From: Lachnospiraceae bacterium
GTDB taxonomy: Bacteria; Bacillota; Clostridia; Lachnospirales; Lachnospiraceae
Length of the DNA: 64,000 bases
Direction of reading: 5' to 3'
NCBI GenBank assembly: GCA_017540265.1
Contig: JAFYBJ010000008.1
Coordinates: 8,109-72,108 of the forward strand
A program made the position numbers and the translations under genes. Below are positions 4,980 to 16,549 of this stretch, piece by piece. How positions within the stretch are numbered: position 1 is the stretch's first letter; each line of letters starts with the position of its first letter. The notes under the pieces were generated by a model. That model did not search any database. It saw nothing but the letters and a program-made list of their open reading frames with translations, and was not told the DNA's origin.

Positions 4980-6020
4980 TTATTTTTCCGTAAAAAGGAT
5001 ATTTATATCCCTGCTTATGATAAAATTTCTTCTTTCGCCTATATGTTCGGAGACGGCATCAGACATGAGGATAAGGATCATTAAAAGTGCAAGTATGAGT
5101 ATATGGGTCTTTCCGGTATTCCCCTTATAAAACACTGAAAGATATTCCGGAAGTAATGAAACCCGGCTTTCCGTCTGCTCTAATATAAACATCACAGCGT
5201 CCACGGAAAGGAAAGCCGAAAGAAATGTCCTTATATCTTCAAATATTTCTGCCACGCTCTTCCTGTATTCTTTATTCTCTGCATCCTTTAGAGCGGAAAG
5301 CAGCCCGGATGCATCACTGTATCTTTTTGACGGATCAGTACTTAAACATTTTTTTATCATATGCCTTTTTGCTTCATTTGTGCATGCTGCAATTGCACCT
5401 TCCACATCAGGCGCAAAAGGAGGCTTTGACGGATCATTTCCTGTTAGCATAAAGCAAAGCAATACACCAAGCGAATAAACATCCGCAGAGGCATCGATCC
5501 TTTTTTCATTCATGCATTCCGGCGCCGCATATCCCCTGCTTCCCGCCCCGCTCTCCACAAAGGCATCTCCGTAGCTCATCACGGCAGCACCCATATCAAC
5601 CAGCTTTATATCACTATCATCCGTGATCATTATATTTTCAGGTTTTATATCCCTGTATATCATGCCGGGGCTGCCCGAATGAAGGAAGGAAAAAAGCTCC
5701 GTTATCTTAAGAAAAAGCTTAAAGGCCCCTTCTGCATCAGGCTTGTTTTCTTCAACATACTGTTTTAAAGTCATGCCTTTTACATATTCCATTATCAGGA
5801 TATCCTTATCCTCATAATGTGCAAAATCGATAAGATAAGGTATGCGTCTGTCATTTATGGCACCAAGTATCTTTGCCTCGTTTTTTAAATTTCTGATATC
5901 CCCTGTCTGCACCTTCATGGCAAACATTCTTCCTGTCCTTATATATCTGGCAAGAAATACTTCCCCCTCACCCCCCTCTGATATCTTTTCTACTATCTCA
6001 TATTCATCACTTATATCCAT
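4980..6020 (-). CDS. Hanks-type Ser/Thr protein kinase with C-terminal hydrophobic segments
   Basis: GGEGEV Gly loop, FAMK, YRDIKPENIM, LVDMG, GSRGYAAPE, DVYSLG. Start chosen 8 nt after GGAGG. Confidence 0.9.
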   Translation of the reverse strand: MDISDEYEIVEKISEGGEGEVFLARYIRTGRMFAMKVQTGDIRNLKNEAKILGAINDRRIPYLIDFAHYEDKDILIMEYVKGMTLKQYVEENKPDAEGAFKLFLKITELFSFLHSGSPGMIYRDIKPENIMITDDSDIKLVDMGAAVMSYGDAFVESGAGSRGYAAPECMNEKRIDASADVYSLGVLLCFMLTGNDPSKPPFAPDVEGAIAACTNEAKRHMIKKCLSTDPSKRYSDASGLLSALKDAENKEYRKSVAEIFEDIRTFLSAFLSVDAVMFILEQTESRVSLLPEYLSVFYKGNTGKTHILILALLMILILMSDAVSEHIGERRNFIISRDINILFTEK

Positions 6021-6071
6021 ATCCATACCTCCATAAAGAATTTCATACATATTTTTAACCATGGTATTCTT

Positions 6072-6776
6072 TCAAAACCTCAGATATATAAGACTCATAT
6101 TATCTCTACAGTCTCTTTTAAGAGCCGTATCCGCAAGAGCCTTTAATCTTTTTTCCGTCTTTCTTTCATCCGCAGGTTCCACGGGACCTGCGGCTTTTAA
6201 AAATTCCTCTTTTTTGATCTTTCCGTACATCCCGTCCGACATCACAAGAAAAGCTGTATCACTTCTTATCTTCCCGAAACTAAGCTTTGGCGGCCTGTAT
6301 CTTCCGCTTCCGATACAGCGTGTGAGTACATTTCCGTTTGCCTGTATATCGCAAATATATTCAGCGTCTTTTGCTGTCAGCTTAAGCACCGTCGAATCTC
6401 CGGCCTGAAAACAGATATACTTATTCCCGTATGCAATAAAAAGTGTAAAAGTTGTCCCCAGTTTTTCATCCTTTTGCATGCCATAGCTTTTTAGTCTTTC
6501 ATGAACCTCATAGAGCTTTCTGTTAACCGCGCCCTCAAGTCTTTTTCTTACGGCAATGCCTCTTAAGATATCAGGCAGCTCGTTATAGAACCATATGCTG
6601 AATTCTTCGGCAACTGTCCCCGAAGCAAAACTGCCTTCATCCATACCTCCGCAGCCGTCACATACAAGCGCCATGATGATATCACCCCGTACGCTTGTAA
6701 GTTTATGCAGAGCTATGCTGTCTTCATTTTTCTCCCTCTTACCTTTTTCGTAGATAACATTACTGAATCTGAACAT
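6072..6776 (-). CDS. PP2C-family Ser/Thr phosphatase
   Basis: NEDS, VCDGCGG, GTTFT, AGDS, MSDG and DNMS metal-binding motifs; AGGAGG SD. Confidence 0.9.
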   Translation of the reverse strand: MFRFSNVIYEKGKREKNEDSIALHKLTSVRGDIIMALVCDGCGGMDEGSFASGTVAEEFSIWFYNELPDILRGIAVRKRLEGAVNRKLYEVHERLKSYGMQKDEKLGTTFTLFIAYGNKYICFQAGDSTVLKLTAKDAEYICDIQANGNVLTRCIGSGRYRPPKLSFGKIRSDTAFLVMSDGMYGKIKKEEFLKAAGPVEPADERKTEKRLKALADTALKRDCRDNMSLIYLRF

Positions 6777-11387: not shown

Positions 11388-12077
11388 TTATACGGTTATC
11401 TTTGTTCCGGAAAAATCTCCGCTCACGGCTTTTATTATACTGTCCTTTTCCGTAAGGTCAAATACAAACATGGGGATCTTTCTGTCCCTTGCCAGTATCG
11501 AAGCTGTCATATCCACAACCTGCAGATTTCCGGATATCACATCATCAATGCTTATCTCGTCATATTTCACGGCATCCGGATTTGTCTTCGGATCGGAATC
11601 ATATACTCCGTCCACGGCCTTGGCCAGATATATGGCATCTGCACCGGTCTCGGCTGCCCTTAAGACAACTCCCGTATCCGTTGAGAAGAAAGGATGTCCT
11701 GTTCCCCCGGCAAAGAATACGGCCTTCCCGGCCTTCATTGCCTTTAACGCCTCATCCTTTGAAAAAAGATTTGTAAAAGATGAGCAGGCAAAGGGAGTGA
11801 ATATTTCCGTATCAATACCGGAAAGCCTGAATATCTCGGAAACATATATGCAGTTCATCACCGTGGCAAGCATCCCTATCTGGTCAGCTTTTGTCCGGTC
11901 TATATTTTCACTGCTGCGGCCGCGCCAGTAATTACCGCCGCCAATCACTATCCCGATCTCAGTACCATTCTCTGTAAGGTTCTTTACCTGGGCGGCTATA
12001 CCCTTTATCACGCCATCATCATATTTTCCGTCCTTTGACAGCGCTTCTCCGCTCAATTTAAGCAATATACGTGACAT
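11388..12077 (-). CDS. pyrH: UMP kinase
   Basis: LLKLSGEAL, GGGNYWRG, GTGHPFFSTD. Confidence 0.97.
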   Translation of the reverse strand: MSRILLKLSGEALSKDGKYDDGVIKGIAAQVKNLTENGTEIGIVIGGGNYWRGRSSENIDRTKADQIGMLATVMNCIYVSEIFRLSGIDTEIFTPFACSSFTNLFSKDEALKAMKAGKAVFFAGGTGHPFFSTDTGVVLRAAETGADAIYLAKAVDGVYDSDPKTNPDAVKYDEISIDDVISGNLQVVDMTASILARDRKIPMFVFDLTEKDSIIKAVSGDFSGTKITV

Positions 12078-12103: not shown

Positions 12104-13516
12104 TTAAGATAAAGACTGCGCTTTGAAGAAATCCTCCGGTGAAACCTCGGCATATACCTGGGAACACATTCCCTCAACAGCAGCGCCTGAGCTTATCTGC
12201 ACGGACGCAGATTTGATATTTCCAAGCACGATAGCGGTATCTGCAAGTATCACCGGACCACGCACATCTATATTGCCCTTGATGGCTCCGGCTATAACTG
12301 CGGAGGTACCACACATATCGCCTATTATCACAGCACCTTTTCCGATCTTTACGCTTCCGCCGCAGATGATATCTCCGTTCATCTCTGCGCCCTCTGCATA
12401 TATCTCACCGGCTTTGGTGATTCCGTTTACCGTACCGGATATATTAAGCTTTCCAAGTATATCTATATTGCCGGTAACAACACCTGCAAGCTCGAGATTA
12501 CCGTCCGATATTATATTTCCGTTTATCTTAACACCTTCCGAAAAACGTGCCGTTTCATCCGAAAGCGTACGCTCGGAAAGCAGCCTTTCAAGCTCTGCAG
12601 AAAGAGCCGCTTCCTCAGGCTTTGTTTCTTTTTTGGTAACAGCCTTCTTTACGGTATTCTTCTTCCTTGATACAGGTTTTTTCTTCTTATCATCCGTATC
12701 CGAAATGCCTATAAGCTGTTCTATGGACATCTGTCCCGCAAGCTGTTCCGCATCATTATCCGCAGGCTTTTCACTGTCTGCAGTCTCAGGATCTTTCGAA
12801 ACTGTTAAAGCCTCATTTACAGAAACACCGGGATCTGCTTCCTCACCGGCATCCTTAACCGTCTCCGTGCCCTTAAAAGCTTCTTCTGCCGCCTTTAAAG
12901 CAGCTTCCATTGCAGCTTCGGAATCGAGGTCTGTCAGGTCTGAAGTACCGGCTTCTTCCCTGATCACAGTCTCTTCTGTCACTTCATCTGCGGAAGGATC
13001 ACCGTGATGGATTTCACTTTCTGTTTCCTCATCTTCCTTAGATTCCTCTTTGGATCCCTCGTTTGTTTCTTCCTTAATTTCAGGAAGAGTTCCTATATCT
13101 TCCTTTTCGGAATTAAGTTCTCCCTGTATGGATTCAAGCATGGCATTAAGATCAAAATTACCTATATCCTCTCCCTTTGCTTCGAAATCCTCATCTGCCG
13201 TTTCATCTTCTTCAGCATCCGAAAAATCAGGCAGTTCTCCTGCTTCACCGTCTGTGCCTGCAAGCTCTGCCTTAAGAAAAGCTTCCAGATCATCAAGCTT
13301 TGCCGATGCATCTTTTGTATCATCATCTTCCGGATCCTCATATACTTCTTCGGTATCCGTTTCATCCGTAAATTCGTCTTCTTCTCCGTCAAACTCTGCC
13401 AGAAGATCGGGAAAATCACCATCCCCCGATACATCCGTATCATCTAAGAGAGCATCATCCTTAAGTTCATTCATTGCATCCGAAAGATCTGATTTAAGAT
13501 TCTGAAAAAAGCCCAT
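12104..13516 (-). CDS. bactofilin (polymer-forming cytoskeletal protein) with long acidic N-terminal region
   Basis: C-terminal ~133 aa with repeated xGNI/GDI beta-helix windings; ~320-aa D/E-rich low-complexity N-terminal region; starts MGFFQNLK. Confidence 0.88.
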   Translation of the reverse strand: MGFFQNLKSDLSDAMNELKDDALLDDTDVSGDGDFPDLLAEFDGEEDEFTDETDTEEVYEDPEDDDTKDASAKLDDLEAFLKAELAGTDGEAGELPDFSDAEEDETADEDFEAKGEDIGNFDLNAMLESIQGELNSEKEDIGTLPEIKEETNEGSKEESKEDEETESEIHHGDPSADEVTEETVIREEAGTSDLTDLDSEAAMEAALKAAEEAFKGTETVKDAGEEADPGVSVNEALTVSKDPETADSEKPADNDAEQLAGQMSIEQLIGISDTDDKKKKPVSRKKNTVKKAVTKKETKPEEAALSAELERLLSERTLSDETARFSEGVKINGNIISDGNLELAGVVTGNIDILGKLNISGTVNGITKAGEIYAEGAEMNGDIICGGSVKIGKGAVIIGDMCGTSAVIAGAIKGNIDVRGPVILADTAIVLGNIKSASVQISSGAAVEGMCSQVYAEVSPEDFFKAQSLS

Positions 13517-13532
13517 CCTGCTGTATTACTCC

Positions 13533-14471
13533 TTATCTGAAATGTATTTCTTCCGTGGTCCCGGAGATCGGAAGAAGCTCCGCTCCCTCCATCGACATAA
13601 CCGCTTCTATTATCCCGGGAAGAGCATCCACCGTGGTCCCTCTGCCTGCAGCATCGTGCATCAGCACGATCACGCACTCTCCCTCTTCCTTCTCAATACC
13701 TTTTATAACCGTATCCGCTATCTGCGCAGCGCTCTTTGTCCCCGAAACAGCATCCGCAGCAGAAACATTCCAGTCAAAATAGCTTATATCCTTTGCATCA
13801 AGATATGATATGCATTCATAAACATCCATAGTATGACAGTTACTGCTTCCCCCCGGAAAACGGTAATATGTACTGTCCACTCCCGTCACCTCAAGTATGT
13901 GACTGTGTATCCTGTCAAGATCATCTGCAAAGCTGTCAAGATCCGCATATACATCGGAATAATCGTGGGACCATGAATGCATCCCTATGCTGTGTCCGGC
14001 CTCGGCTATCTTCTTTAGTTCCTCATCATACTTTTCATGCCCGTTCACAAAAAAAGTAGCCTTAACATCATATGTATCAAGGATATCAAGTATCCTTTCC
14101 GTATTGGAACTGGGGCCGTCATCAAAGGTAAGATATACCTTTTTTGATACTGTTTTGGGTCTGCTGTTGCTTAATGTCCCGTAATCTTCACCGGAGGAGA
14201 GAAATACCTCATTCTTTACAACGGATACATCGGGATCAGCTGCAGATGCGGTCTCCTTTATGCCGGCATTATCAAGACGGACGGAAATATCCTCGATCAT
14301 ATTCCTTGTTTCCAGAATACTTTTTTCAAGCCTCTCCATCCTTATCAATGCTATAACGGAAATGACTGAAGGCACAATAAGAAAGAACATGAAAAAACAG
14401 ATCATGAAAGTCTTGATCTTAGCTATACGTTTTCTTTTATTCTTTTTTTCCTCAAGCTCTTCAGGACGCAT
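13533..14471 (-). CDS. membrane-anchored CE4 polysaccharide/peptidoglycan deacetylase
   Basis: Basic N-terminus plus one TM helix, then NodB motifs TFDDGP, HSWSH, RFPGG, DWNV, LMHD. Confidence 0.92.
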   Translation of the reverse strand: MRPEELEEKKNKRKRIAKIKTFMICFFMFFLIVPSVISVIALIRMERLEKSILETRNMIEDISVRLDNAGIKETASAADPDVSVVKNEVFLSSGEDYGTLSNSRPKTVSKKVYLTFDDGPSSNTERILDILDTYDVKATFFVNGHEKYDEELKKIAEAGHSIGMHSWSHDYSDVYADLDSFADDLDRIHSHILEVTGVDSTYYRFPGGSSNCHTMDVYECISYLDAKDISYFDWNVSAADAVSGTKSAAQIADTVIKGIEKEEGECVIVLMHDAAGRGTTVDALPGIIEAVMSMEGAELLPISGTTEEIHFR

Positions 14472-14477
14472 AGTGCT

Positions 14478-14505
14478 ATTTTAGTATGTTGATAAAAAGT
14501 GTCAA
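14478..14505 (-). promoter_or_regulatory. sigmaA-like promoter, probably giving a leaderless mRNA for the deacetylase
   Basis: TTGACA-16bp-TAAAAT; the ATG lies 6 nt downstream of the -10 box with no SD. Confidence 0.6.
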
Positions 14506-14567
14506 GATTACGTAACATCACCGGTTGTTAACCTTAGTGAAGCTCTGTTCTTAAGCTCACATGTGGC

Positions 14568-14600
14568 AAAAAAAACCGCAGGCAGATATACCTGCGGTTT
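14568..14600 (-). terminator. intrinsic terminator after tsf
   Basis: AAACCGCAGG/CCTGCGGTTT stem followed by a T run on the minus strand. Confidence 0.85.
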
Positions 14601-14620: not shown

Positions 14621-15709
<1,089 letters not shown>

Positions 15710-15793
15710 TTCCTTATTCCTTTCTTTATCTTTAACAAAGAATATGCCGCTTCTTAAGCGGCACATTCAACATCGGTTCCTAATGTGGAGGAA

Positions 15794-16549
15794 TTAAACC
15801 TCTCCCGCTTCTGCCTGTGCTTCCTCAGCTGCAGCGCTCTCTGCTTCCTCGGGGCTTACAAACTCCTCGCCCTGTCTGCCTTCTATAACAGCATCAGCCA
15901 TCTTGGAAACGATAAGCTTTACTGCTCTGATGGCATCATCATTGCCGGGGATAACATAATCAAGCTCTTCAGGATCACAGTTGGTATCAGAGATACCGAA
16001 AACAGTGATTCCGAGTGAATGAGCCTCCTTTATGCAAAGATGCTCTTTCTTGGGATCTACAACAAATATAGCATCGGGAATACGCTCCATGGTCTTGATA
16101 CCGCCGATATTTTTTTCAAGCTTATCCCACTCTTTTCTGATCTCTATAACTTCCTTCTTGGGAAGAACATCAAAAGTTCCATCCTCGCTCATCTTAACGA
16201 TCTCGTTAAGACGCTTGATACGTGTCTGGATGGTCTTGAAATTGGTGAGCATTCCGCCTAACCATCTCTCACTTACATAATACATTCCGCATCTTGCTGC
16301 TTCTTCCTTAACTGCATCCTGAGCCTGCTTCTTTGTTCCTACAAAAAGAATGCTTCCGCCCTGTGCTGCGATATCAGATATCGCATTGTATGCATTGTCG
16401 ATCATTCCAACAGTCTTCTGAAGATCGATGATGTGGATGCCGTTCCTCTCGGTGAAGATATAAGGCTTCATCTTAGGATTCCAGCGTCTGGTCTGATGTC
16501 CGAAGTGGACGCCTGCTTCAAGCAGCTGTTTCATTGAAATAACACTCAT
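15794..16549 (-). CDS. rpsB: 30S ribosomal protein S2
   Basis: [28 protein letters not shown]. Confidence 0.98.

Follow-up and report, generated by a model that had tools for sequence, protein, structure and literature searches.

Gene organization of the locus

The stretch of DNA analyzed here (the window) comprises 64,000 nucleotides (nt) of a Lachnospiraceae bacterium (GenBank assembly GCA_017540265.1, contig JAFYBJ010000008.1, positions 8,109 to 72,108 of the forward strand) and contains two adjacent genes encoding a membrane-anchored polysaccharide deacetylase of the CE4 family and a long bactofilin. The gene order, all on the minus strand, is rpsB-tsf, a hairpin, a sigma-A-type promoter-like site, the CE4 gene, 16 bp, the bactofilin gene, 26 bp and pyrH. 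Both spacings, and the continuation into pyrH-frr-uppS-cdsA, coincided with those given in an earlier note on this DNA, made from the sequence alone. The pair is conserved in related genomes and its bactofilin gene has been lost repeatedly when flagella were lost; therefore, the pair likely helps to build or place flagella in the cell wall and does not serve cell shape only. The features of the two genes are the following (window positions):

13533..14471, minus strand: CE4/NodB polysaccharide deacetylase, 312 amino acids (aa), PF01522 E 2.6e-30
14409..14471, minus strand: cytoplasmic N-terminal tail of the deacetylase, residues 1-21, with the basic run at 9-20; not all homologues keep the charge
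14343..14408, minus strand: predicted transmembrane helix of the deacetylase, residues ~22-43, its sole hydrophobic segment
13572..14156, minus strand: NodB catalytic domain, motifs 1-5 intact
12104..13516, minus strand: long bactofilin, 470 aa, PF04519 E 8.9e-18
13451..13516, minus strand: amphipathic N-terminal helix of the bactofilin (MGFFxxLKxDLSxAxxEL type), conserved, predicted membrane anchor
12692..13450, minus strand: acidic, mostly disordered linker, length highly variable between homologues
12620..12688, minus strand: basic patch, residues 277-299, found in some homologues
12173..12553, minus strand: extended bactofilin beta-helix, residues 322-448, predicted local distance difference test score 97-98; the C-terminal motif and helix beyond it are conserved

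The deacetylase and the bactofilin

The deacetylase has one transmembrane segment and intact motifs, as the earlier note had described. The motifs of the window protein (TFDDGP, HSWSH, RFPGG, DWN and LMHD), together with the fold match, would provide the Asp-His-His metal triad and the catalytic Asp and His of CE4/NodB enzymes. Among 113 linked homologues, for which motif 1 was also used as inclusion filter, TFDDG was present in 112, HSxxH in 111, RFPG in 113, DWN in 113 and LxHD in 110. The structural model predicted one long helix at residues 3-68 covering the tail, the transmembrane segment and a stalk, followed by a disordered linker and the NodB domain, whose closest PDB entry was 5JMU (E 1e-36, 37% identity, root-mean-square deviation 1.4 Å). 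The NodB fold and all five motifs are shared with the CE4 peptidoglycan N-acetylglucosamine (GlcNAc) deacetylases (5JMU from Eubacterium rectale, as named by its depositors; PgdA; Bc1974). Unlike the named CE4 groups, the protein reached no NCBIfam equivalog cut-off, its best scores against the PgdA, PdaA and PdaB models being 95-97 bits vs cut-offs of 237-800. The predicted outward-facing topology would be compatible with a wall substrate. The tail, previously described as strongly basic, does carry the basic run KKNKRKRIAKIK (residues 9-20), but EELEE precedes it and the net charge of residues 1-21 is just +5. Tails of homologues are poorly conserved in sequence and mostly basic, yet 17 of 103 had a net charge no higher than +1.

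In addition to the PF04519 match, the bactofilin gave profile matches to 6RIA (E 3e-8) and 2N3D (E 1e-6). Foldseek with the full-length protein found no match at E 0.001 or better, and its probabilities were 0.99 for 6RIB (E 0.18) and 0.98 for 2N3D (E 0.33). Matches in the ESM Atlas were to unnamed Bacillota bactofilin clusters only, and further matches in the homologue search carried generic names only. In the model, the N-terminal helix (residues 3-22) is followed by an acidic linker of mostly low confidence and by a beta-helix predicted with confidence, about 127 residues long vs the 98 positions of the Pfam model. The earlier description of a very acidic region of about 320 residues was right as to acidity (residues 1-275 are 35% aspartate or glutamate, with a net charge of -80), but the basic patch at 277-299 went unmentioned; the conserved amphipathic helix at the N-terminus had also been missed. 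The 121 full-length homologues, whose starts were chosen by residues 1-4, range from 225 to 605 aa, and their linker is acidic (median 33% aspartate or glutamate) and otherwise free. Their N-terminal helix is near-invariant (K8 in 119/121, D10 in 118/121, A14 in 114/121), and that of the window protein has a hydrophobic moment of 0.54 vs 0.49 for the 99th percentile of the linker. By analogy with BacA (PMC12448750), this helix is likely a membrane anchor. An in-frame stretch of 33 bases within the acidic linker (window 13017-13049) is absent from contigs of two RNA-library runs and, therefore, linker length likely differs between strains.

Conservation of the pair

A synteny survey, which the earlier note had proposed as a check, showed that the pair is conserved. 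CE4, bactofilin and pyrH were neighbors in this order in 21 of 24 genomes of the same genus; two of the exceptions break at contig ends and the third (81% complete) is without pyrH too. In the best 80 of at least 534 GTDB loci, with names mostly of Lachnospiraceae, Butyrivibrio, Acetatifactor and Roseburia, pyrH was downstream in 80 and CE4 upstream in 79, the last locus having just 615 bp of flank. The placement between tsf and pyrH on which the earlier note had remarked is the ancestral one, but it is not the rule, since 14 of these 80 loci had tsf within the upstream flank that was fetched. An order-wide draw of 50 genomes of the family and 250 of other families yielded the long bactofilin type in 30/50 and 2/250, respectively, a third match outside the family being of the short type. 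In the two other-family genomes (G031 and G051) the pair is present and pyrH is not next to it; in G031 (L168:4884-7767) the bactofilin gene lies between two membrane-anchored CE4 deacetylase genes, on the strand opposite to pyrH.

A second draw comprised 251 genomes, one per genus and partly overlapping the order draw. In its 92 bactofilin-bearing genomes CE4 was adjacent in 72, elsewhere in 11 and without an orthologue-level copy in 9. Among 116 adjacent pairs, CE4 and bactofilin were at most 50 bp apart in 106. CE4-bactofilin coupling is thus strong and not obligatory. Of the 24 genomes with CE4 and no bactofilin match, 20 regions were inspected, and in one of them a 111-aa open reading frame (ORF) lies between CE4 and pyrH.

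Two further arrangements were observed. In a clade of four genomes (G093, G362, G389 and G472; loci L203, L206, L207 and L208) the deacetylase gene has been relocated from the bactofilin gene to before a folC-like gene; three of the four are without flagella and retain both genes. Furthermore, a second, short bactofilin of 162 aa with neither linker nor N-terminal helix (G000:C53:24013-24465; L174:4993-5478) follows a metallophosphatase gene upstream of tig-clpP-clpX-lon-like genes, similar copies being present genus-wide.

Co-loss of the bactofilin with flagella

Among the family members of the order draw (50 genomes), fliG was found in 30/30 with bactofilin vs 4/20 without it. In the 251-genome draw, 89 genomes had both genes, 4 bactofilin only, 38 fliG only and 120 neither; removal of one weak match and addition of one degenerate copy gave a corrected table of 88, 5, 39 and 119. 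The degenerate copy, in aflagellate genome G377 (L395:2211-3692), lies before pyrH; its C-terminal motif and some 30 aa of its beta-helix are missing. The match in G385 (E 1e-29, no CE4) was counted as a non-orthologue. The four bactofilin-only exceptions had neither FlhA nor flagellin and kept CE4, and FlhA was also missing in 14/14 fliG-negative genomes that were re-tested.

Because related genomes are not independent, an RpoB tree was built with 160 genomes: 153 of the 251 (150 with a listed place plus three of the exceptions) and 7 others. Genome G000, which gave no rpoB match, is outside this tree. With Dollo parsimony, and with ancestors inferred to have both traits, bactofilin was lost on 12 of 15 flagella-loss branches vs 2.8 expected from the rate on flagellated branches, where 14 losses occurred (P 1.5e-7). 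At three times this background rate P was 0.003, and without two weakly placed tips the co-losses were 10 of 13. These P values are rough because the test is our own calculation on a one-gene tree with some weak nodes. As controls, spoIVA was lost on 4 of 45 flagella-loss branches vs 3.2 expected, and bactofilin on 2 of 13 spoIVA-loss branches vs 3.6 expected.

A sporulation link of the PdaA/PdaB type was considered and rejected. Bactofilin occurs independently of sporulation: 35 of 92 bactofilin genomes were without spoIVA (P 0.16), and both controls stood near expectation. No sporulation genes were found in G000, a genome 73% complete.

Relation to the motility cluster and to flagellar type

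The order flagellar/chemotaxis genes-sigD-FapA-DUF6115-type genes-rpsB-tsf-CE4-bactofilin was found in 7 of 10 regions selected for a nearby fliG and, therefore, the pair sits just beyond the motility cluster. The flagellar cluster closes, in most of the fetched regions (L405-L414), with genes for a DUF6115 protein and a small YceG-like protein just before rpsB.

The fliG matches fell into two score groups, and bactofilin was present in 88 of 103 high-scoring genomes vs one weak match in 24 low-scoring ones, which suggests that bactofilin is tied to one flagellar system. Flagellated Clostridia have been split into G1, with a separate mbl-flgF-flgG-flgJ locus and mostly Lachnospiraceae, and G2 (bioRxiv 10.1101/2025.07.18.665615). 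The two score groups may correspond to G1 and G2. In G000, fliG and flhA are on C11. Separate from the main flagellar cluster, G000:C45:23784-27086 contains a run that we take to be mbl-flgF-flgG-flgJ-like, by eye and with names assigned from motifs. Its last ORF, also judged by eye, has just 179 aa and may lack the muramidase domain.

Transcription signals and neighboring genes

The following features flank the pair:

14621..16549, minus strand: rpsB-tsf, upstream neighbors (tsf end = 14621); ancestral position, often relocated
14565..14600, minus strand: intrinsic-terminator-like hairpin and T-run 3' of tsf
14478..14505, minus strand: sigma-A-type promoter-like site TTGACA-16-TAAAAT, 11/12 consensus match, 6 nt 5' of the CE4 ATG
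11388..12077, minus strand: pyrH, heading pyrH-frr-uppS-cdsA-dxr-rseP

The strong terminator that had been noted after rpsB-tsf corresponds to a 12-bp hairpin (14600-14573; -18.8 kcal/mol) with the T-run next to it. RNA-library contigs, which reveal neither strand nor single transcripts and may include DNA, stop at 14630 in two studies, a weak hint on the terminator; contigs span both genes, one bridges the bactofilin-pyrH gap and one crosses the tsf terminator. The new promoter reported before CE4 is present as a site of the sigma-A type. Nevertheless, a scan found 10 promoter-like sites vs 9.7 by chance, so this site alone is no proof of a promoter. A similar site was found 5' of 23 of 91 homologous CE4 genes vs 6.65 in shuffles.

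The sequence AAGGAG, Shine-Dalgarno-like, precedes the bactofilin gene, where it overlaps the CE4 stop, and also precedes pyrH. No terminator-like site was found on the minus strand of the scanned stretch between CE4, bactofilin and the pyrH-rseP genes, and the latter (pyrH-frr-uppS-cdsA-dxr-rseP) are likely co-transcribed. The GC content of the pair region is similar to that of its flanks. The CE4 ATG (14471-14505 region, minus strand) lies 6 nt after the -10 box, has no Shine-Dalgarno sequence and resembles the start of a leaderless mRNA, so that the CE4 transcript is possibly leaderless. As a family trait this was rejected, similar spacing having been found in just 5 of 100 homologues. Downstream of rseP (window positions 4980-6776, minus strand) lie genes for a PP2C-type phosphatase and for a Ser/Thr kinase whose C-terminal part is hydrophobic.

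Comparison with known bactofilin systems

The absence of a described Firmicute example, as put in the earlier note, did not hold, since BacE and BacF of Bacillus subtilis have been described and act on flagellar assembly (PMC4627819). Mutants in bacEF lack hooks and filaments and keep basal bodies (PMC4627819); the defect is strain-dependent and is suppressed by a mutation in the rod gene flhO that gives an extended rod protein FlhO (PMC9103452). How Firmicute bactofilins aid flagellar assembly is left unexplained in both papers. The operon of BacE/BacF (YhbE/YhbF) is headed by the DUF4004 regulator BacR (PMC13649987). By analogy, the window protein would be, like BacE/BacF, a Firmicute bactofilin tied to hook and filament assembly, theirs being located partly at basal bodies. 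Unlike BacE/BacF, which are two genes behind bacR with no wall enzyme described in the operon in those sources, here there is one long bactofilin behind a deacetylase, and the gene upstream is CE4 and not a DUF4004 regulator.

As in the bactofilin/M23 module (BacA-LmdC of Hyphomonas and Rhodospirillum; CcmA-Csd1 of Helicobacter), the bactofilin gene is directly preceded by that of a bitopic wall enzyme whose cytoplasmic N-tail is short. Unlike that module, the enzyme is a CE4 deacetylase (the only domain found) and not an M23 endopeptidase, its tail is predicted to be helical and not a beta-hairpin, and the bactofilin has a long acidic linker, an extended beta-helix and tracks flagella. The lmdC-bacA arrangement of PMC10945521 itself occurs in this Firmicute order: at four loci (L026, L027, L029 and L173) of other Lachnospirales families a short bactofilin lies directly behind an M23 peptidase. 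In Rhodospirillum rubrum lmdC-bacA sets curvature, which is said to promote motility (PMC10945521).

A third comparable system is BacA-PbpC of Caulobacter (PMC12448750), with which the pair shares a membrane-anchored wall enzyme as candidate client and an N-terminal peptide, membrane-targeting there (MFSK...) and predicted to be so here (MGFF...). It differs in that an 8-residue peptide and a synthase client are replaced by an amphipathic helix of 18-22 residues and a deacetylase. PbpC that had only the conserved N-terminal tail peptide, its basic juxtamembrane region being removed, was still localized (PMC12448750). No paper on a bactofilin-deacetylase pair or on a Lachnospiraceae bactofilin was found among the results listed by literature searches, with most subscription papers outside their coverage.

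Proposed role and alternatives

The best reading of these data is that the pair is a flagellum-associated form of the bactofilin/wall-enzyme module, with CE4 instead of M23. Some motility-linked role for the bactofilin is probable. More tentatively, and with somewhat less than even confidence, we propose that the bactofilin of this conserved pair, which is kept or lost with flagella, forms a membrane-bound patch at the flagellar assembly site which would hold the deacetylase there to adjust the wall around the rod. The N-terminal amphipathic helix would bind the membrane, the beta-helices would polymerize end to end on the long acidic spacer, and the site of action would be the basal body. There the bactofilin would recruit the deacetylase, the two proteins touching each other, and local de-N-acetylation of peptidoglycan GlcNAc, its putative substrate, would tune which hydrolases cut. 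PgdA-type de-N-acetylation alters the sensitivity of glycan strands to muramidases, and such a change could serve to open the wall, or to protect it, at the passage of the rod. If the proteins touch, the bactofilin core or the conserved terminal helices are likelier contacts than the acidic linker; a complex prediction with full-length bactofilin and CE4 residues 1-70 scored 0.00, which speaks neither for nor against a contact. Flagella of motile Roseburia and Eubacterium are subterminal (PMC3720852). A more specific version, which we consider doubtful, is that in Roseburia/Butyrivibrio-type Lachnospiraceae the bactofilin marks subterminal flagella sites and recruits a peptidoglycan deacetylase, and that local de-N-acetylation gates the crossing of the wall by the rod.

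In favor of a flagellum-associated module we counted, besides the co-loss data and their controls, retention of the pair away from pyrH in two other families (G031 and G051), once as CE4-bactofilin-CE4, as well as the bacEF precedent of B. subtilis with its missing hooks and filaments and its flhO suppressor. Several observations weigh against it. Bactofilin was lost on 14 branches that retain flagella and, therefore, is not essential for them, and it was retained in 3 aflagellate lineages, G437 holding an intact adjacent pair. The pair is separable, with 9 of 92 genomes without orthologue-level CE4 and 11 of 92 having it elsewhere, some of these through contig breaks, and CE4 stands directly before pyrH without bactofilin in 7 of the 20 inspected regions. 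Upstream of CE4 no enrichment of a sigma-D (sigma-28) consensus motif was detected (6/91 vs 2.8 by chance). The phylogenetic test relies on a single-gene tree and Dollo parsimony with several weak nodes, and gaps in metagenome-assembled genomes (MAGs) can imitate loss. Finally, the B. subtilis phenotype depends on the strain (PMC9103452), and a curvature system serving swimming would be expected to show co-loss with flagella as well.

The latter corresponds to a cell-shape module, the reading of the earlier note. Here the bactofilin would place the deacetylase along one cell side to make or tune curvature and would be dropped once swimming was lost and curvature had no value. We regard this as possible and rather unlikely. 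Order and topology of known bactofilin/wall-enzyme operons do hold for the pair (a transmembrane wall enzyme upstream and a bactofilin downstream, as in the curvature-setting lmdC-bacA of R. rubrum; PMC10945521), the M23 version is present in other Lachnospirales families, bactofilin persists in the three aflagellate lineages and the promoter is of sigma-A rather than sigma-D type. However, the phylogenetic signal points to motility: the distribution between high- and low-scoring fliG genomes suggests one flagellar system, and the Firmicute bactofilins in the cited literature, BacE/BacF, act on flagella (PMC4627819).

It is unlikely that the bactofilin is a flagellar accessory and the deacetylase an unrelated housekeeping wall-modifying enzyme, for lysozyme or autolysin control, sharing the operon by history. 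CE4 does persist before pyrH without bactofilin, both with and without flagella, bactofilin persists without CE4 in some genomes, CE4 was kept on 9 of 21 flagella-loss branches (a cut-off that may let in paralogues) and its tail sequence is poorly conserved. On the other hand, in two other families the two genes remain paired at a site away from pyrH, in one case with the bactofilin between two deacetylases, the gaps are short in most adjacent pairs, and bactofilin was lost on 14 of 18 CE4-loss branches vs 2.9 expected, a result that adjacency alone could produce.

That the pair has no motility function, and that assembly gaps, gene loss in general or physical linkage with the flagellar cluster account for co-loss, is improbable. 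In the ancestral arrangement the pair lies about 2-3 kb past the end of the fla/che cluster, most genomes are MAGs, contigs break within the repetitive linker (G014, G020), and one false negative (G377) was found. However, the losses are local deletions: the essential rpsB-tsf genes in between are kept, with tsf and pyrH contiguous, in G229 and G486, and CE4 is in place and contiguous with pyrH in G265, G471 and G482, so that a single deletion cannot explain the co-loss there. Moreover, SpoIVA is kept in most aflagellate lineages, and no bactofilin was found in the pyrH upstream flank of 14 inspected genomes, which represent 11 of the 12 branches with co-loss.

Lastly, the electrostatic recruitment of the earlier note, in which the basic deacetylase tail would bind the acidic bactofilin linker, agrees with the opposite charges of the window proteins and with the mostly basic homologous tails, but it is very improbable, since tail charge is weak in some homologues (the 17 of 103 above) and does not covary with that of the linker (rho -0.09), basic residues are expected before a transmembrane helix by the positive-inside rule, the bactofilin itself carries a basic patch at 277-299, and the basic juxtamembrane part of PbpC is dispensable for recruitment, as described above for Caulobacter.

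Significance

Bactofilins in flagellar assembly are already known from B. subtilis, and what is new is the link of the conserved pair to motility. With about a dozen independent co-losses, a link between bactofilin and flagella gains evolutionary support in a second Firmicute class, and the operon names a candidate effector for the bactofilin role in flagella, a wall deacetylase, which is directly testable. If the more specific version above, with the bactofilin at subterminal flagella, is true, the pair would be a deacetylase-based equivalent of the bactofilin/M23 module, and flagellar assembly would include a wall-editing step, none such having been found in the literature searches. Among the hosts are abundant motile commensals of the gut, with flagellins that are major immune antigens (PMC3720852; bioRxiv 10.1101/2025.07.18.665615), and the bactofilin looks like a marker of one of the two flagellar systems in motile gut Lachnospiraceae.

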